Below are positions 11,613-32,000 of a stretch of DNA of 64,000 nucleotides, one piece after another; position 1 is the stretch's first letter, and each line of letters starts with the position of its first letter. The DNA is from a virus. Under the pieces are notes generated by a model. That model did no database searches, was not told where the DNA came from, and saw only the letters and a program-made list of their open reading frames with translations. The DNA lies in IMG/VR virus record IMGVR_UViG_3300009503_000022, positions 1 through 64,000 of that record; one strand, written 5' to 3'. Both the position numbers and the translations under genes were made by a program.

Positions 11613-14399
11613 TTATAAACTACTACCATTAATAAAAATCTCATCAGGATTATAACCAGAAATTATCTTTTCAATCATTTCTCTGTCTTTTTTCAAGTTA
11701 ATACCCTTCGTACATCGCCAAATAACAACAACTTTTTTATCTTCTTTTTCACCAAAAACAAATACATATTTTCTTCCATCCTCTATAAGAAACTTATACT
11801 TATTTATAGTTAATCCCAAAAGATAATTAAATGTTTCGATTAAATCTATATTAACAATTTCTTCTCCTTTGTTACCTGAAATAATTTTCATTTTATATTC
11901 AAAAGGATTTTCAAAATCCTGAATGTTTAATAATGATTGACAACATTCGATTTTATGCCTTAAAAAATATTTCATTAGATATTCATTTCCAAATAGTTCA
12001 AATGCACTCTGCCCTTTGTCTTTGTTTACAAATTCAATATTGTGTAATGTATCTTCATATTGTTCAAGATAATGATATTTTAAAAAAACTCCAATTCCAT
12101 CTATATCCTGTGGTTTCCCCTCTTTCCAATTAAAAGAATAAGCAATTTTTTTCATTCTTGGAATAATAATAGTATCAAAATAATCTGCCATCTCTACAAG
12201 AATAAATTTTCTTTTACCTCCATCTTCTTTATTGAGTTTCATAACTGCGTGTGCGGTTGTGCCTGAACCCGCGAAGAAGTCAAGGATAAAAATTTTATCT
12301 TCTTCAATCATACTGATCAGAAATTTTATAAAGTGTATCGGTTTAATTGATTGTAGAGATATAAGTTCCATATCCCTTATTATTTTGCTTTCATTATTCA
12401 TATCCTTCTCAAAATCGTAGAAATCAAAATAAGAAATTTCTGTTTGGGCACTATTTAATTCCTTTCTTATCTTTAAAGGAATTCCTTGATAATAGACAGT
12501 ATTTATTGTTCTCTCATCAGGATTTTTTATATATCTGAAACCAAAACCATCATCACCTATGCCATAAACTTTATATAAATAGTTATAATTTTTTTCTTTT
12601 TCGAATAATGGTCTTAAGTTTTCTTCGTAAAATTTTTCAGTAAATTGAGCAGTTTTTATTTTCCCTCTTATTGATATAGGTTTAACAATATAAAAATCAT
12701 TTATCTCACTACATTCAATTATCTCATATTGGTCGGGTCTGAAACATTCTATTTTATATTTACCAATTGTAAAAGTTTTGAAGGGTTTATCTTTTTCTAT
12801 AATTTTTAACTTATATTCTGAAAAATCGTAATCAACTTTTTTCTTTTTTATAGACATTTTTTCTGATTTTGAAAATACCAAACAATACTCTATTGATTTT
12901 TGAAAAATAGATTTCTGTGTTAGTTGTCTAGCTGGGTTTCTCATTTTTATTTTTAATTTTTCAACTTCAAAATAAAAACTTCTCATTATATTATAAAGAT
13001 TACTGACTTCATTATCATCAATACTTACAAAAATAACTCCATCGTCTCTCATCAATCTCTTTGCCAAACTCAATCTATTTTCCATCATAGTAAGCCAAGA
13101 AGAATGCTGGTATTTATCCTTATAGAGAAATTCATCATTTCCTGTATTATAAGGTGGATCAATGTAAATAGTCTGCACTTTATCTTTATACTTATTCAAA
13201 ATCAAATTTAATGCCTGATAGTTTTCGCTTTTAATCAAAACTCCATCTAATAATTCATCAATATTTCCTTTCTCTGATAATTTTTCTAATAATCTTTCTT
13301 TAAAATCCTGACTGAAATATTTTGTATCTATAGGTAGTTTTCTGCCTTTTATATCATTTTTATCTTTTATTTTGCCAAACCCTAACTCCTCCCATTCCTT
13401 TAATTGCTGATTATTCTTAAAAATCTCATCATAAAACTCTAAAGGTATCCTATCCATTGTAATTACATATTCGGTTTTTAAAACAAATTTCTTCTTCTCC
13501 CATAGTAGTTTCTGAAATTCTTCAATTTGAGCAAGAAATTTTATAATTCTCTTTGCAATTTCATCAACAACCTTTGCTCTAATAATATGTTTTGATTCTA
13601 AATTATTAAGGTCAACAATCTCTGTTTTTATATAATAATCGAGTTCTCTTTCTAAAAATCCTTTCAAGTCCTTATGAATAAAGAAATCACTAATTTCAAT
13701 ATGCATATATTTACAAAGATGTTTTTCTAAAATTGTTTTATTATCTTTTATTTTCGAAAAAATTTCTTTAAGTTCAATTTCGCTAATTTGTTCAACAATT
13801 TTATCTTTTATAATATTATTAAGCATTTTTTGCTTTATATCTGCTGTTATTTTATAATTCTTAATATCTTCATCAGACAAATATCTATACTCAAAATATA
13901 TAATACAACTTTTTTGTTCTTTATTAACCTTGATAAAATCATTTTCCTTTAAGAAAAAATATTTTCTCTTATTATTGATATTTCTCACTTCTATAAAAAC
14001 AGTTTTAAATATAATCCTCCATCCTTCCAAATCAAAACTATAATCTTTAAAAATCTCATTAGTATTTACATAATACTGATCAGAATTTATCCAATAAAGT
14101 TTTACATCTTCACCACTATGAGGAATAATACACTTTCTTGAAATAAAATTACCATTTTCATAATATCTTAAAAAAAATCTATAAAGATCATCAAAAATTT
14201 GATTTTGCATAAATTCATCAATCTGATATTTATACTTCTCAAATTCACCTTCTATTACCTGAACAAGTTCACCTTTAACAAAATCTTCTATCTTCTTTCT
14301 TTTATAATTCATAATTCGATAAATACCAAAATCAAATTCACTAATATCAAATTGACACAAAATTCTAAATAATTTTTCTAATCTTTCTATCATACCCAT
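11613..14399 (-). CDS. mod: type III restriction-modification Mod-like adenine DNA methyltransferase (no res gene in the window)
   Basis: DFGIYRIMN N-terminus, IYIDPPYNTG, ILDFFAGSGTTAHAV, EQYEDTL, DLIETFNYLLG. Confidence 0.9.
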   Translation of the reverse strand: MGMIERLEKLFRILCQFDISEFDFGIYRIMNYKRKKIEDFVKGELVQVIEGEFEKYKYQIDEFMQNQIFDDLYRFFLRYYENGNFISRKCIIPHSGEDVKLYWINSDQYYVNTNEIFKDYSFDLEGWRIIFKTVFIEVRNINNKRKYFFLKENDFIKVNKEQKSCIIYFEYRYLSDEDIKNYKITADIKQKMLNNIIKDKIVEQISEIELKEIFSKIKDNKTILEKHLCKYMHIEISDFFIHKDLKGFLERELDYYIKTEIVDLNNLESKHIIRAKVVDEIAKRIIKFLAQIEEFQKLLWEKKKFVLKTEYVITMDRIPLEFYDEIFKNNQQLKEWEELGFGKIKDKNDIKGRKLPIDTKYFSQDFKERLLEKLSEKGNIDELLDGVLIKSENYQALNLILNKYKDKVQTIYIDPPYNTGNDEFLYKDKYQHSSWLTMMENRLSLAKRLMRDDGVIFVSIDDNEVSNLYNIMRSFYFEVEKLKIKMRNPARQLTQKSIFQKSIEYCLVFSKSEKMSIKKKKVDYDFSEYKLKIIEKDKPFKTFTIGKYKIECFRPDQYEIIECSEINDFYIVKPISIRGKIKTAQFTEKFYEENLRPLFEKEKNYNYLYKVYGIGDDGFGFRYIKNPDERTINTVYYQGIPLKIRKELNSAQTEISYFDFYDFEKDMNNESKIIRDMELISLQSIKPIHFIKFLISMIEEDKIFILDFFAGSGTTAHAVMKLNKEDGGKRKFILVEMADYFDTIIIPRMKKIAYSFNWKEGKPQDIDGIGVFLKYHYLEQYEDTLHNIEFVNKDKGQSAFELFGNEYLMKYFLRHKIECCQSLLNIQDFENPFEYKMKIISGNKGEEIVNIDLIETFNYLLGLTINKYKFLIEDGRKYVFVFGEKEDKKVVVIWRCTKGINLKKDREMIEKIISGYNPDEIFINGSSL

Positions 14400-14408
14400 T
14401 TAAACATC

Positions 14409-14942
14409 TTACTCCTTTTTTAAATTACCAACAAAATCAAAATTATTAGGTTTACTATTCATTATTCTAATTACTTCTGATAAAGAAATTGGTGAAAAAT
14501 TATTACAATCCACACCTACATCCATTTGCTTCCCTTGAGGTTCTAATCTACCATGACTATGACCATATAATTGCCAAGAATTATAATGACTTCCCGGCCA
14601 AGTTCTCATTGCATAATGACATAACACTATAATATTATTAACGTTTGGAATATCTATTATTTTAATATCTGCTATCTCTTTAATTTTATCGCAAATCTTA
14701 ATTTTTTTATCATGAGATCCTCTTATAAAATAAATATCTCCATTTAATTTATTTAAATAATAATCAGGATCTCCCATACAAAAATCTCCTAAATAATAAA
14801 CAATATCGCCAGGTTTCACTTTACTATTCCAATTACGTATCAAAACTTCATCCATTTTTTCTACACTTTTAAATGGTCTATTACAATATTTAATTATATT
14901 AGTATGACCAAAATGACAATCTGAAATAAACCAATATTTCAT
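14409..14942 (-). CDS. calcineurin-like metallophosphoesterase
   Basis: SDCHFGH, LGDF, GSHD, LYGHSH, DVGVD. Confidence 0.9.
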   Translation of the reverse strand: MKYWFISDCHFGHTNIIKYCNRPFKSVEKMDEVLIRNWNSKVKPGDIVYYLGDFCMGDPDYYLNKLNGDIYFIRGSHDKKIKICDKIKEIADIKIIDIPNVNNIIVLCHYAMRTWPGSHYNSWQLYGHSHGRLEPQGKQMDVGVDCNNFSPISLSEVIRIMNSKPNNFDFVGNLKKE

Positions 14943-14960: not shown

Positions 14961-14995
14961 TAATTATATCTATATTTTTATAATAAATTTACATC
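14961..14995 (-). promoter_or_regulatory. class B promoter-like motif GATGTWAA-N19-TATAATTA
   Basis: Identical spacing at 27050-27084 and 43316-43350. Confidence 0.6.
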
Positions 14996-17067
14996 ATATC
15001 TGTTATAATTTCGCCTGCTTGATATTCAATATTACTTTCTATAAATTCTCCTCCCTCTTTACTTTCTTTAAGTTCCTCTACAAATAACTGCTTAATTGCT
15101 CCAACAACAGTATCTGTCAAATCTTTTTCTCCTTCTTCTGTATGATCTACCTTACCATCTTCCTTTCTTTCTAATTGCTTAATTTCTGTTAACAACTCTT
15201 CTATATCTAATAATTCAATTCTTTGAGAATAAATAAATTCCATAAAATTATTATAATCTTTAACTGTTAACGTATATGCATCGGCTTTTATACCATCGTT
15301 CCTCAAATCTTGAATAAAAAGACTAGACTGCCAATGATCAAAAAATACTATAATATTTATTCTATTGGATATCTCTTTAATAATTTGTCTAATATTAGGA
15401 AACGATACTATATATCTTACTTTAGTTACTTTATCAATAGGTCTCCAAACAGTAGAACAATCGTGTATTGCTCTTGCACCTTCTCTATGAAAAATAGACA
15501 TTCCACATTTATCGTGCTTTTCCCCCAAATCTATAGTTAAAATATATGTAAAATCTTCTAATCCAATATTCCATTTCTTAATTTTTTTCTTAATCTCACC
15601 ATTTTCCATATAATCTTCAAATTCAACTATAGGTTTTCTAAATTCATTAACACAAGCATATAACTTATCTGGATATTCTATAAATGGTGATTGAGATCCA
15701 GGAGGCATACACATATACATTGACTTTGCCATTGTAGGATTACGATCAAAGGTTGATTTAAAATCTATAGGTATCTTATAAATTTTTTTAACATCATTAT
15801 TATTCTTATCCTTCACTATAACTTCAAAATCAAATGTAGGTCTATCTTTATATAATTCTTCTTTTACTTCCCAAGTAAACGCAGTATCTGCATATATATG
15901 CAAATCCGACTCTGCTAATTTAATTAATCGTTTAATAAATCCTGACTCTGTTCTTGGATAACTAATAACAAAACCTTTATATTTATTTCCAAATCTAGAT
16001 TCTGCAGACGTTTGAAGCATATTAAATATTTTATCTGCATTTCTCGTTTTAGTTTTATCTTTAAATGCATCTGCTTCATCCATAGTAAACATTAATAAAT
16101 TTAAACCTTCTGTACTCTCTTGTTCAGAATGCCTACTAAATAATCTTATTAAATTTGGAAATAATATAGCGTTTGTTCCAATTCTTATTTCATTTCTTAA
16201 TTCGACAATATCCTTTTCACTAATATATGAATTACTTATCTTAATATTAAAATACTGCTTAAACCATAAATTATTTATTACTCTTTGTTTTAATTTTTCA
16301 AAAAATACAAATTTTGCCTGTTCTCCTGAATATGCAACATTAACAATATCTATAGCTTCATTATCGGGTAATCCTAATAACTTCTGAGGATTATTACAAC
16401 ATAATAAAAAATAACAACAATATAAAGTCATAAGTGCACAAATTGTATCCTTACCTGAATTATGATGTAAAATATCATTTAAAATCATATTCTTATGTAT
16501 TGGAGAACAAAATCCATAAAATTCTTCTTCTCCAATCTCTTCTATACTTTCTATTTCATCAAATTCTAATATTTCATTTATTTTATATATATCATAATTA
16601 TATACGTGAAATTCTATATTCATCTTTTTTGCAAATTCTTTTGCAGCATTACATTTTATCTCGAATATAGGACTATTTTTAGTAAAATTACTTTTAATCT
16701 CTTCTATCCAAATTGAAGCATTTTCATTATCTATAACTAATAAATCTGGAATATAATTATGTTTAATTCCATCAATATAATACGGTATTTTCATAGGTTC
16801 GTGAAAAAATATATATCCATTATTATCTAATTCAATCATTCTTACTAATTCATAATTAGAATTATATTGTTGTATACCATTATTTTTAAATTTATATTTT
16901 CCACATTTTGCCTTACTCCTATTAAAAGTTTTATTTATAATTTTATTAGATATAGTTTCAGAATTATGTTCTTTATTCTTTTTAAATCTACATTTATCGC
17001 AATATTTTCTTCCATATACACTAATAAATAATGAATTACAATTTTTACATATCATTTCTTTTGGCAT
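14989..17067 (-). CDS. terL: terminase large subunit, C-terminal part: Zn finger + TnsA-like endonuclease + C-intein + ATPase remainder + RNase H-like nuclease
   Basis: YIPDLLV..EEIK (PD-D/ExK); ILHHN|SGKD splice junction; FTMDEAD Walker B; IDLGEKHD, FDHWQS, KVDH...KDLTD nuclease motifs. Confidence 0.85.
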   Translation of the reverse strand: MPKEMICKNCNSLFISVYGRKYCDKCRFKKNKEHNSETISNKIINKTFNRSKAKCGKYKFKNNGIQQYNSNYELVRMIELDNNGYIFFHEPMKIPYYIDGIKHNYIPDLLVIDNENASIWIEEIKSNFTKNSPIFEIKCNAAKEFAKKMNIEFHVYNYDIYKINEILEFDEIESIEEIGEEEFYGFCSPIHKNMILNDILHHNSGKDTICALMTLYCCYFLLCCNNPQKLLGLPDNEAIDIVNVAYSGEQAKFVFFEKLKQRVINNLWFKQYFNIKISNSYISEKDIVELRNEIRIGTNAILFPNLIRLFSRHSEQESTEGLNLLMFTMDEADAFKDKTKTRNADKIFNMLQTSAESRFGNKYKGFVISYPRTESGFIKRLIKLAESDLHIYADTAFTWEVKEELYKDRPTFDFEVIVKDKNNNDVKKIYKIPIDFKSTFDRNPTMAKSMYMCMPPGSQSPFIEYPDKLYACVNEFRKPIVEFEDYMENGEIKKKIKKWNIGLEDFTYILTIDLGEKHDKCGMSIFHREGARAIHDCSTVWRPIDKVTKVRYIVSFPNIRQIIKEISNRINIIVFFDHWQSSLFIQDLRNDGIKADAYTLTVKDYNNFMEFIYSQRIELLDIEELLTEIKQLERKEDGKVDHTEEGEKDLTDTVVGAIKQLFVEELKESKEGGEFIESNIEYQAGEIITDMM
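16459..17067 (-). mobile_element. C-terminal half of a split intein fused to a TnsA-type endonuclease
   Basis: FDEIESIEEIGEEEFYGF...NDILHHN followed by Ser+1. Confidence 0.8.
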
Positions 17068-17353
17068 ACGCGATACTATCTCCTATTTTCAATTCCTTTA
17101 TTTTTTTCCAACCATTTTTAGTATACAATTTATGATTCTCATCAACTTCTATTATTTTACCTAATTTTGTTTTTATTCTGTATATTTTTGCTTTACCTTC
17201 TTTAAATATAGGTTTAATCGTAGTAATAACCTTTTTTCTTTTATGAAAATCAATAGCTTCTACATTTATTGGTTTTTTCAAACTTTCCCACTCTTCTACT
17301 GTATGTCTTTCTTTAGTAATTTTATCTTCTATAATAGTACCTTTCCGAAAACC
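17045..17353 (-). mobile_element. N-terminal half of a split intein (starts with Gly)
   Basis: Hint block A/B-like motifs, ending at GDxIA. Confidence 0.75.
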
Positions 17354-17650
17354 TCCTTTCCCCCATTCTAAGACTGCCAAATTGAAAATTGGATTATCAA
17401 ATATATTCTTATTAATATTATTTTTGTTCTTTACATAATCATCATAAGTATATCCATATAACATTGCATAACAAGCATCTAATTGCCTTTTCGTTAATTT
17501 TATAAAATTACAAAATTCTTTATCTTCAACAAAATTTTTAAATTCAATAGGTTCAAATCCTTCTTTAAATATAGATACTTTTTTTATACCATCTATTTCA
17601 TTTTTTTTATCTTTTATTATCTTATTTAAATCACTGTAAAAATCCTGCAT
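17045..17650 (-). CDS. terL: terminase large subunit, N-terminal part + N-intein
   Basis: LTKRQ adenine-binding motif, AVLEWGKG (first half of Walker A), then Hint N-part GFRKGT...YRIKTKLGKIIEVDENHKLYTKNGWKKIKELKIGDSIA. Confidence 0.85.
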   Translation of the reverse strand: MQDFYSDLNKIIKDKKNEIDGIKKVSIFKEGFEPIEFKNFVEDKEFCNFIKLTKRQLDACYAMLYGYTYDDYVKNKNNINKNIFDNPIFNLAVLEWGKGGFRKGTIIEDKITKERHTVEEWESLKKPINVEAIDFHKRKKVITTIKPIFKEGKAKIYRIKTKLGKIIEVDENHKLYTKNGWKKIKELKIGDSIAYAKRNDM

Positions 17651-29043: not shown

Positions 29044-32000
29044 TTATTTCCTTAATTTAATTATATAATTTTCATACAATTTTTTTAAATCTAAAACTCT
29101 TTGATCTCCATTACATTGCAATATTGGAACTCTACCTTTATTATCCTTCTTTAATTTTAAAACAACAAATCTATCTTTTCGTAATAATTCTTTATTATTT
29201 TTATACTCTTTATCCCAAGCAAAAAATGTTATTTTAGAATAATCATCCATCAAACTTATTACATACATATTTTTATTCTTTTTAGTTTTTCGCATCAAAA
29301 CACTTTCTATCATACCATATACATACGATTCTCCTTCGGCTAATTTACAAAATTCAGTAATAGACATTATATTTAATTTCTTAAAACATTTTTTAAAATC
29401 ATCTTTAAATATCTTATCAGACAAATAAACTTTTAATGCGTCAATTTCTAATTTCATAAGATCTTTTTTACTTAATTCTACAAAATTTTCTTCACTTTTT
29501 TTAATACTATAATATTCTTTTAATAACTCATTTCTATCATCAAAAGAATCAAATGCTCCAGAATAAATCAAATATTCTACTTTAGTTTTATTACATTTAA
29601 CTTTATCTAAAAAATCTTTAAAAGATTTAAATGGCCTCTTTTTTATTATTTCTTGTCCTAAATTACCAATATTTTTTATATGATTAAACCCATATATTAT
29701 TGTATTATCATCTAAAATAGAAAAATCTAACTGTGATCTATTAATATCTGGGTTCAAAACATTTATACCATTAATTCTAGCATAATTAATATAATCAGCA
29801 AGAAAACTAGTTGTATTTTTTCCTTCTTTGCCTCTTGGAGTATTATTTATCAAAGCAGTCATAAATTCTATAAAATAATATTTTTTAAGCCACATTTCTT
29901 GATAACTTATCATTGCATAACCACAAGAATGAGAATTATGAACTACAAATTCATTAGCGATATAACAATGATTAATATCTTCTACTTCAATATCGTATGT
30001 ATGTCTTTTACCACAATATTTTATTTCTTTTACTACATCTAAATCAAATATATTAAAATCTCTTAAAAATATAGTTATTTCCATACCCTTTTCTAATTCG
30101 GACAATTTTAACCAATTTCTAAACACTAAAAATTTATGATCTGCAGAACTTATTATCTGTCTATTATCTCGAGTTTTTAATACATAACATTTTTTAATTC
30201 CAGTATCGTAAACATTTTTTATTTTTACAGGTTTAAGCTTTCCATCAATATACGAACATATATATATACTTTTATTAGATGAATGAAATTTTTTATACAA
30301 TTCGCATATTTCTATTTCATCAACAATTCCTTTTTTAACATTAGTATAATACAATACCTTAGAATTTCCTGCTAAACATTTATTAAATCCATATTGAGAA
30401 AATGATGCCATTTCTTTCCATAAATTTTCTGCTTGTTCTCTTGTAATAAATTTAGTAGCATTATTTATAAATTTATCTTTATATGATTCTACCTCTGCAA
30501 ATCTTTTAGATTCTACCTCTGCAGATCTACCATATTTAACTAATGCTTTTCTAAATCTATTTGCTTCAACTAAATCAAAATTCGCGATTTTTTGAGCAAT
30601 TAACATAATAGATTCTTGATAAACTATTATTCCATAAGTTTCTTTCAATATATCTTCTAAACATTTTGGTATAGTATATTTCCCAGTAAACTTTCTTTTA
30701 GCAAAATCTTCGTGCATTCCTAATCTTAAAGGACCCGGTCTTAACAATGCATTCGTCGCAATTAATTCATTAAAATTACTTGGTTTAATTTTAGCAATCA
30801 AATCTCTAGCAATCCTCGATTCAAATTGAAATATTCCTACAGTATCTCCATTCCATATCTTTTTATAAACATTTATATCATTCAAATCTATAGAATCTAA
30901 ATTAATATCTTTATTATATCTTTGTTTTATTAATTTTAAAGTATCTCTTATAACAGACAAATTAGTTAATCCCAAAATATCAAATTTAACAAATCCTAAT
31001 TTAGATAATTCGTGATAATCAGACCCTTCTTGCCAAGCACTTAATATATTATTTTTTTGTGTCATCAATGCAATATTTTCACTTAAATTTCTATCTGATA
31101 TAATTATTCCTGCTGCATGCCTACTTATATTTCTAATTTTTCCTCTTAACTTTTCCAATATTTTTTTAACTTCAGGATATTTATCAAAATAATCCTTAAC
31201 TTCAGGAAAATTATTTTCTATTTCCTCTATTGTCATATCGTCACTATCAGACGTCAATACATCTCTAGTTAATCTTAAAGATTCTATTAAAGGTATATTT
31301 AACACTCTACCTATATCTAAAATTGCACTTCTTGTTTTAAAAAATCCATAAGTACCTATTGCACAAGTTTTTTCTTTAGAAAATCTATTAAAAATATATT
31401 CAACAACTTTATCTCTATCATCAGAAGAAAAATCTACATCAATATCTGGAGGATCCTCTCTACCTTCGCTCATAAATCTTTCAAATAATAACCCATATTT
31501 AATAGGATCTAATCCTGTAATATTTAATAAATAACAAACAAGAGATCCTGCACCTGATCCTCGTGCTTTTCCTACATAAATATTATTTCTTTTAGCCCAA
31601 TTAATTATATCTTCTAAAATTAAAAAATAACCAACAAACCCTAATTTTTTAATAATCCCTTCTTCATATTTAACTCTATCTCTATATATTTTTTTAGTTT
31701 TTTCATCTAATTTATCAAAACCTTTTTCTTTCCAGCCTTTCACTAATTTATTATGAAAAATCTCTTCATCATTATCATATAATTTAGGTAATTTAATAGA
31801 AGTATCTAATTCGATATTTTCTACTTTATCAATTATTTCTCTTACGTTTTTAACAGAATCTTTATAAACTTCTTCTGTAAAATATTCATTTTCATAAAAA
31901 TCTTTAAATGATCTATACATTTCAAACTGATTTTTATAATATAAATCTTTAGACTTAAATTGCCATATTTCATCAGGATTTTTTTCTTTATCTTTCATCG

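Follow-up and report, generated by a model that had tools for sequence, protein, structure and literature searches.

In the virus record IMGVR_UViG_3300009503_000022 of IMG/VR, of which positions 1 to 64,000 were analyzed (this 64,000-nucleotide stretch is called the window below), the gene for the terminase large subunit (TerL) is interrupted inside its Walker A loop and divided between two overlapping open reading frames (ORFs), with a TnsA-like nuclease fused to the C-terminal half of the interruption. I consider this, with good confidence, to be a natural split intein in the Walker A loop of TerL, encoded by two genes that are probably coupled in translation and carrying its nuclease on the C half. 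The parts of the element are as follows.

17045-17650, minus strand: ORF1, 201 amino acids (aa), TerL N-extein followed by the N-intein
17354-17650, minus strand: TerL N-extein, ORF1 residues 1-99, up to LEWGKG, the first half of Walker A (from the translation)
17045-17353, minus strand: N-intein, ORF1 residues 100-201 and the stop codon (from Pfam PF14890 and relatives)
17351-17353, minus strand: Gly1 codon GGT, the first intein residue (from the sequence and the codons of relatives)
17080-17084, minus strand: AGGAG, Shine-Dalgarno-like, with a 12-nucleotide (nt) spacer to the ORF2 ATG (direct reading)
17045-17067, minus strand: 23-nt overlap of the ORF1 end and the ORF2 start, ORF2 lying in the +1 frame
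17065-17067, minus strand: ORF2 start codon ATG, in the context GCG-T-ATG
14989-17067, minus strand: ORF2, 692 aa, zinc ribbon, nuclease, C-intein and TerL C-extein
16978-17067, minus strand: Cys4 zinc ribbon at the ORF2 N-terminus (C7, C10, C23, C26)
16588-16905, minus strand: TnsA-fold PD-(D/E)xK nuclease core, ORF2 residues about 55-160 (from PF08722, fold and residues)
16459-16572, minus strand: C-intein FDEIESIEEIGEEEFYGFCSPIHKNMILNDILHHN, ORF2 residues about 166-203, with blocks F and G (from alignment)
16507-16509, minus strand: Cys187 in block F (F:6 by alignment), candidate branch nucleophile
14989-16458, minus strand: TerL C-extein, ORF2 residues 204-692 and the stop codon, from Ser+1 of SGKD

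The C-terminal part of ORF1 reads LEWGKG, then GFRKGT...VDENHKLY...GDSIAYAKRNDM, and then a stop codon; the N-intein in it begins with Gly1 (GFRKGT), has VDENH as its block B and closes with a short tail, AYAKRNDM. ORF2 starts with MPKEMICKNC... and runs in order through a CxxC...CxxC ribbon, an E...PD...ExK nuclease core and the C-intein to the intein/extein border ILHHN/SGKDT (the slash marks the border, here and below), from which the C-extein continues, and since no stop codon separates the nuclease from the C-intein there are only two ORFs at the locus. An earlier reading of this DNA, made from the sequence alone (the sequence-only reading), had described two overlapping ORFs with AGGAG 12 nt upstream of the second, and a second ORF in which a zinc finger and a TnsA-type nuclease are fused in frame to a C-intein; coordinates, overlap and spacer are as it gave them, and each component of the fusion was confirmed by translation, Pfam and fold. 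At the ORF1/ORF2 junction neither a hairpin of the Dassa/Edgell type nor a terminator was found, and promoter-like matches there were no more frequent than expected by chance. A nuclease-free C-intein product made from an internal start at Met149 was considered and rejected, as Met149 is not kept in the related loci L001 or L006.

That the interrupted gene is TerL, and that the interruption is exact, follows from its homologues. A search of 5.8 billion proteins with ORF2 as the query recovered intein-less relatives, two of which (P0002 and P0003) are both 588 aa long and read LEWGKGSGKD and LLWGKGAGKD at the site, while P0012, P0013 and others have an uninterrupted WGKGSGKD at the same position; the exteins of the window, at 99 aa (N) and 489 aa (C), add up to exactly these 588 aa. 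The insertion is thus in frame and precisely missing from homologous intein-less alleles, and the Walker A insertion point proposed by the sequence-only reading is where these homologues place it. The N-extein is about 70% identical to the N-terminus of P0002 and the C-extein 71% identical to the corresponding part (P0002 came out of the ORF2 search at about 70% identity to the window protein). P0002 is itself a terminase large subunit by PHROG (phrog_2 at 1.3e-11, phrog_9 at 2.1e-8), a PDB sequence search with it gave no match, and in a tblastn search the C-extein matched annotated Streptomyces phage terminase large subunits at about 1e-31, the matches beginning from the residue after the intein (about query residue 200). 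The C-extein includes the C-terminal nuclease domain of the terminase, which has a predicted local distance difference test score (pLDDT) of 80-90 over residues 470-660 in a first AlphaFold2 (AF2) model, although that model, made for the whole of ORF2 from an 8-sequence alignment, was poor overall (pLDDT 54).

The WGKG/SGKD site of this TerL family is also a hot spot for other inteins, being occupied by seven or more distinct contiguous inteins with Cys1 or Ser1 (in P0010, P0020, P0027, P0028, P0031, P0032 and P0035), one of them with LAGLIDADG, and with P0033 in the classical split form, its ORF opening with a 33-aa C-intein.

Judging from the loci compared, the split is genuine and no artifact of assembly. 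Three TerL lineages that are mutually only 33-35% identical (the window, L001 and L006) share the two-gene layout, an outcome of the comparison with homologous loci that the sequence-only reading had itself named as a check. In L001, an IMG/VR contig, gene 1 is a 179-aa ORF (...AWGKG, then GFSKDK...GDKIGKLK and a stop) and gene 2 is an 845-aa ORF that starts from an ATGA overlap and encodes a zinc finger, NUMOD3-like repeats, the nuclease, the C-intein, SGKD and TerL; L006 has a 195-aa ORF (...LWGKG, then SFKKDT...) and a 767-aa ORF overlapping by 8 nt. P0037 is a stand-alone N half of 191 aa, 55% identical to ORF1, and a naturally split intein with its halves on separate ORFs is therefore a conserved layout across the window, L001, L006 and P0037. 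Further relatives, namely P0004, P0006-P0009 and P0011 (837-846 aa) and P0015 (662 aa), begin with the nuclease module and have no N-extein; the split state of P0004-P0015 is taken only from the N-termini of gene calls.

The sequence-only reading had left room for a one-base indel or a +1 frameshift, as removing one T in GCG-T-ATG joins the two frames into a continuous GDSIAMPK, and a contiguous relative of the element does exist (L002, P0192 and P0193). On that account an indel from sequencing or assembly, or a very recent inactivating frameshift that left a pseudogene, would have disrupted a contiguous nuclease-bearing intein, but this is almost certainly not what happened: the frame of ORF2 relative to ORF1 is +1 in the window, +2 in L001 and +1 in L006, with overlaps of 23, 4 and 8 nt, and P0037 keeps its tail in the ORF1 frame beyond the proposed shift site (IAYEKR... 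against IAYAKR... in ORF1). ORF1 is present as an identical 201-aa sequence on 3 contigs, and ORF2, which is P0189 in the protein set, has a variant (P0001) with the same 692-aa ORF at 99.7% identity that comes from other assemblies (JGI, Logan, ENA; a 110,771-bp contig) and differs by two conservative substitutions, N71S and M92I, both in the nuclease domain (region of window positions 16849-16851 and 16792-16794). The N-terminus of ORF2, moreover, has the make-up of the free-standing nuclease family, in which zinc ribbon or NUMOD3 modules precede a nuclease at the C-terminus, and in the contiguous L002 the halves became joined in another way, through the loss of about 190 aa in frame. The related proposal that a programmed +1 ribosomal frameshift at the overlap yields a single contiguous precursor that splices in cis could draw on a 38-nt stretch of the window in which such a shift would fuse the frames; it is highly improbable, because L001 would need the other frame (+2, i.e., -1), the permissive stretches in L001 and L006 shrink to 10 and 11 nt, no slippery sequence is common to the three junctions, a stimulatory RNA structure is absent (z +1.65, +0.99 and -0.06) and every ORF2 has its own ATG right at the junction. 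The recurring layout, the differing frames and overlaps, the lack of RNA structure and the variant from independent assemblies together make an indel, a recent pseudogene and a programmed frameshift all unlikely.

The nuclease encoded between the intein halves is a TnsA-like PD-(D/E)xK enzyme and a member of a large family that combines zinc ribbons or NUMOD3 with a TnsA-like domain. Pfam places TnsA-like N (PF08722) on ORF2 residues 89-156 at 26.2 bits when the whole ORF is the query and at 28.5 bits, above the 26.5 cut-off, when residues 1-203 are used alone. Structure comparison was done with a second AF2 model, of residues 1-203 from an 82-sequence alignment, which has a mean pLDDT of 84, exceeds 90 across the nuclease and forms the beta-hairpins of the zinc ribbon at residues 4-20 (pLDDT about 80). 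The best four Foldseek matches of the nuclease model in the PDB are all TnsA, and VIA-align superimposes it on TnsA 1F1Z with Z 12.6 and a root-mean-square deviation of 3.3 A over 129 residues, whereas generic PD-(D/E)xK folds reach Z 8.7 at most. The catalytic residues E73, D108, E123 and K125 are all intact; in 82 relatives D108 and E123 never vary, and the conservation of E73 and K125 is 90% or higher. A HMMER scan of 1.84 billion representatives returned 312 relatives of the nuclease, most of which are free-standing, 120-400 aa long and have the TnsA-like domain at the C-terminus, and among the 82 examined, 81 match PF08722, 22 have motifs of NUMOD3, which is a DNA-binding module of phage homing endonucleases, and several open with zinc ribbons. 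ORF2 is built as these free-standing proteins are, with DNA-binding modules followed by a C-terminal nuclease; in a pairwise comparison with one member, P0078, the nuclease core is the only part that aligns significantly (36% identity), and as the zinc-ribbon stretch gave no significant alignment with P0078, the likeness to free-standing proteins is one of domain order and core and does not extend to a demonstrated start-to-start correspondence. The family has one weak match in 50,697 deposited phage genomes, and no second TnsA-like copy was found in the 110-kb record.

This enzyme presumably acts as a homing endonuclease that would cleave DNA, and TerL shows the presence/absence polymorphism of the homing type, the window gene having the cassette and its sisters P0002 and P0003 being intein-less. 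One could instead regard the TnsA-like domain as a packaging accessory nuclease delivered together with TerL, comparable to T4 gp4, which has been described as a TnsA-like nuclease required in packaging (PMC7824862), and ORF2 residues 54-148 do match phrog_218, annotated 'head closure', at 2.1e-6. I find this very unlikely, since the close relatives P0002 and P0003 do without the entire cassette, L002 retains the intein yet has lost the catalytic Asp and Lys, and relatives of the nuclease have NUMOD3 homing-endonuclease modules and occur free-standing within another split intein.

The two flanking pieces are recognizable as intein halves by their splicing blocks. Pfam Intein_splicing (PF14890) matches ORF1 residues 125-196 at E 4.4e-7 and 30.3 bits, and the precomputed database Pfam (version.12) also assigns it to ORF1; the N-intein shares 50-57% identity with its counterparts in L001, L002 and L006, while the C-intein is about 80% identical to that of L001 and can be aligned to C-inteins from 17 further inteins, of which 16 occupy this same site in TerL. 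The four splicing blocks read GFRKGT (A), VDENH (B), FYGFCSPIHKN (F) and HHN/S (G), the first being the counterpart of the common C-F-x-K-G-T block A, and the block B His, the HHN that ends the intein and Ser+1 do not vary between lineages with exteins only 35% identical. Position 1 is Gly in the window, L001, L002, P0037 and P0038 where class 1 inteins have Cys, Ser or Thr, and with Gly at this position the class 1 acyl shift is impossible as a first step. The codon for Gly1 is GGT in the window and GGG in L001 and L002, and Ser1 of L006 is encoded by TCG. In the window, L001 and L002, Gly1 goes together with D-x-x-H in block B and FYGFCSP in block F, whereas L006 has Ser1 with T-x-x-H and YYGIIVP, and Gly1, the block B Asp and the block F Cys thus co-vary against Ser1, the block B Thr and the block F Ile; the block F Cys is found in all Gly1 members, with Ile in L006 and Thr or Glu in the other Cys1 or Ser1 inteins aligned. 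The co-variation of Gly1 with the block F Cys is a new observation, and it suggests a class 3-like role for this residue. That the Cys is a class 3-like branch nucleophile at a non-standard position is a serious possibility, if one that falls short of probable, and a direct attack by Ser+1, in the manner of class 2, is a rather doubtful second candidate.

Several facts speak against a working intein and have to be set beside these motifs. On the N half alone PF14890 scores 30.3-32.2 bits, below its gathering score of 35.8; no Pfam or PDB sequence match covers the C-intein, and a PDB sequence search with the L002 intein gave no match either. Gly1 removes the canonical N-terminal nucleophile, the block F Cys lies by alignment at F:6, two positions past the class 3 site F:4, and where class 3 inteins have Trp (B:12) and Thr (G:5) there are Leu or Phe and His, respectively. 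A class 3 assignment was rejected on this alignment, as the Trp, Cys and Thr (WCT) residues are not in place despite the lack of a position-1 nucleophile, and it is from conservation that splicing competence is deduced. The missing nucleophile and the missing WCT signature might be taken to mean that Gly1 has inactivated the element and it no longer splices, leaving either a defective phage or a terminase in two pieces that the intein halves hold together non-covalently. This reading is nonetheless unlikely: three loci retain Gly1 despite a synonymous change of its codon, the contiguous form present on several contigs would leave about 240 residues inside the P-loop, and the block B His, HHN and Ser+1 have stayed unchanged at the extein divergence given above. 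The intact catalytic residues of the nuclease, too, indicate that the element is not decaying. A splicing-competent split intein is the favored reading; the element is real and conserved, and its chemistry would be non-canonical.

Other inteins came to light alongside it. The sister split intein of L006 (L006:3086-5969, plus strand) combines Ser1 with Ser+1, has a cysteine-free splicing domain and likewise has the nuclease fused to its C half, and in P0015, which branches deepest within the L001 clade, block F has Ser where the others have Cys (FYGFSNP) and the nuclease is degenerate (PS, ECE). The phage also has a second intein, at window positions 29935-30315 on the minus strand, a canonical class 1 mini-intein within a 1412-aa open frame (GFNK/CLAGNS ... 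ADHKF ... TYDIEVED ... VVHN/SHS). L003 and L020 are unrelated Cys1 mini-inteins and were set aside.

Under the favored reading both genes would be co-transcribed and translationally coupled, gene 1 giving TerL(1-99) joined to the N-intein and gene 2 giving, as one polypeptide, the zinc ribbon, the TnsA-fold nuclease, the C-intein and TerL(100-588). The intein halves would associate into a HINT domain, and trans-splicing would ligate WGKG to SGKD to produce a 588-residue TerL with a restored P-loop, releasing the excised halves as a non-covalent complex of the N-intein with the nuclease-C-intein, which in its topology would match an ordinary bifunctional intein nicked in the linker that precedes the nuclease. 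The nuclease could then cut intein-less TerL alleles, and the whole cassette would spread.

How this arrangement relates to known systems is clearest from the fractured genes, in which a split intein breaks a phage gene at the usual endonuclease insertion point and the endonuclease, of the GIY-YIG or Vsr-like type and related to free-standing genes, is a separate third ORF with its own stop, preceded by a spacer of 27-51 nt, and often with a hairpin; terminase is among the hosts (Dassa et al., 2009; PMC2677866). The window has the same orientation of all parts on one strand, overlapping coding regions, an endonuclease between the intein halves and a terminase host, but its nuclease is TnsA-like, lacks a stop of its own and is part of the same polypeptide as the C-intein and C-extein, and a hairpin is absent. 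The contrast that the sequence-only reading had drawn, a free-standing endonuclease as the usual state and one fused to the C-intein here, matches that paper when it is set against ORF2. Where fractured genes have three ORFs the window has two, and it is the helicase locus L007 that shows the three-gene arrangement, with a free-standing TnsA-like nuclease ORF of the same family. With contiguous bifunctional inteins, including L002, P0192 and P0193, the window shares the order of N-terminal splicing region, nuclease and C-terminal splicing region, and with these three also the insertion site and the splicing motifs; it differs from contiguous inteins in that the chain is interrupted before the nuclease, which keeps a start codon and a zinc ribbon. 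The nucleases known from inteins are LAGLIDADG, HNH, Vsr-like, GIY-YIG and EndoVII-like, some encoded out of frame or antisense (bioRxiv 10.1101/2025.01.02.630785), and a TnsA-like enzyme is outside the types given there. AceL NrdHF, which was the first class 3 intein reported to be naturally split, is phage-derived and comes from a fractured gene with a separate GIY-YIG gene, and its position 1 is Ala, with Cys at C2:4 and Thr at C1:5 (PMC7891396); the window resembles it as a phage split intein without a position-1 nucleophile, with a variant WCT triad and Ser/Cys+1 chemistry, and departs from it in having Gly1, a Cys shifted two positions on to F:6, His at G:5 and Leu or Phe at B:12. Tn7 TnsA (1F1Z, 1T0F; PF08722) and the window nuclease have in common the fold of the catalytic PD-(D/E)xK domain and its E...PD...ExK residues, whereas the latter stands in an intein context, lacks both the C-terminal domain of TnsA and any TnsB or TnsC partner, and has an N-terminal zinc ribbon instead (NUMOD3 repeats in relatives). 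Within the limited set of literature searched, I found no account of TnsA-like nucleases in inteins, and none of natural split inteins whose C half has an intact nuclease fused to it.

Three arrangements of one nuclease family, in three genes, two genes and one gene, appear to exist side by side. At L007:2670-4606 (plus strand) the first ORF of a helicase gene ends in a Cys1 N-intein and a separate 294-aa NUMOD3 plus TnsA-like gene with its own stop lies directly behind it (the contig stops before the C-intein); the window, L001 and L006 are the two-gene forms; and L002 has this same Gly1 intein within one continuous ORF of 839 aa, similar contiguous forms being P0192 and P0193, on several contigs. 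L002 has no zinc-ribbon or NUMOD3 region, and in its nuclease the catalytic PD has become PS and the ExK has become ESV. A C-extein tree, from a quick maximum-likelihood run of IQ-TREE in which L006 sits on a long branch, nests L002 in the split L001 clade (support 99), groups the window with the intein-less P0002 and P0003 (support 100) and requires at least four changes of the split state. Between the window and L001 the N-intein is 57% and the nuclease plus C-intein 62% identical, against 42% for the N-extein and 35% for the C-extein, and mobility fits these data because the intein and nuclease are more conserved than the exteins and the window TerL groups with intein-less alleles; the greater conservation of the intein could, on the other side, mean constraint instead of transfer. 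A scan of metagenome contigs returned only L005, a TonB-type receptor and a false positive, and a scan of genome contigs gave no match.

The order of events that I favor would most likely begin with a free-standing zinc-ribbon/NUMOD3 plus TnsA-like endonuclease gene invading a mini-intein, where it would have kept its own start codon and read through into the C-intein; the cassette would then have spread between TerL lineages, and a later in-frame deletion or fusion, accompanied by decay, would have given the contiguous L002. The proposed fusion route corresponds to step IIIa of the model of Dassa et al., in which the flanks of the endonuclease gene are lost and it becomes an in-frame domain, intermediates being predicted and none shown (PMC2677866). 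Taken jointly, a more ambitious claim, that the chemistry falls outside the three intein classes or is a class 3 variant in a shifted register that arose, within one intein family, from a class 1 sister with Ser1 (L006), and that the nuclease-C-intein fusion is the long-postulated intermediate with three stages observable in a single nuclease family, can be put forward only tentatively.

The 3' neighbors of TerL (window 11613-14942, minus strand) are a 177-aa metallophosphoesterase (phrog_547 at 2.3e-51) and a protein of 928 aa that has the methyltransferase motif DPPY.

If this reading holds, the window would be a natural intermediate for the model in which bifunctional inteins arose by free-standing endonuclease genes invading mini-inteins, and separate-gene (L007), half-fused (window, L001 and L006) and in-frame (L002) stages could be compared within one nuclease family. 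A TnsA-fold enzyme with zinc-ribbon or NUMOD3 modules extends the short list of nucleases associated with inteins, and such TnsA-like intein enzymes may be new site-specific nucleases. The pairing of Ser1 with Gly1 plus a seemingly compensating Cys within one family would offer a compact system for learning how splicing mechanisms change, and, cysteine-less split inteins being sought-after tools in the literature, the splicing domain of L006, which has no cysteine, may be of value as well.

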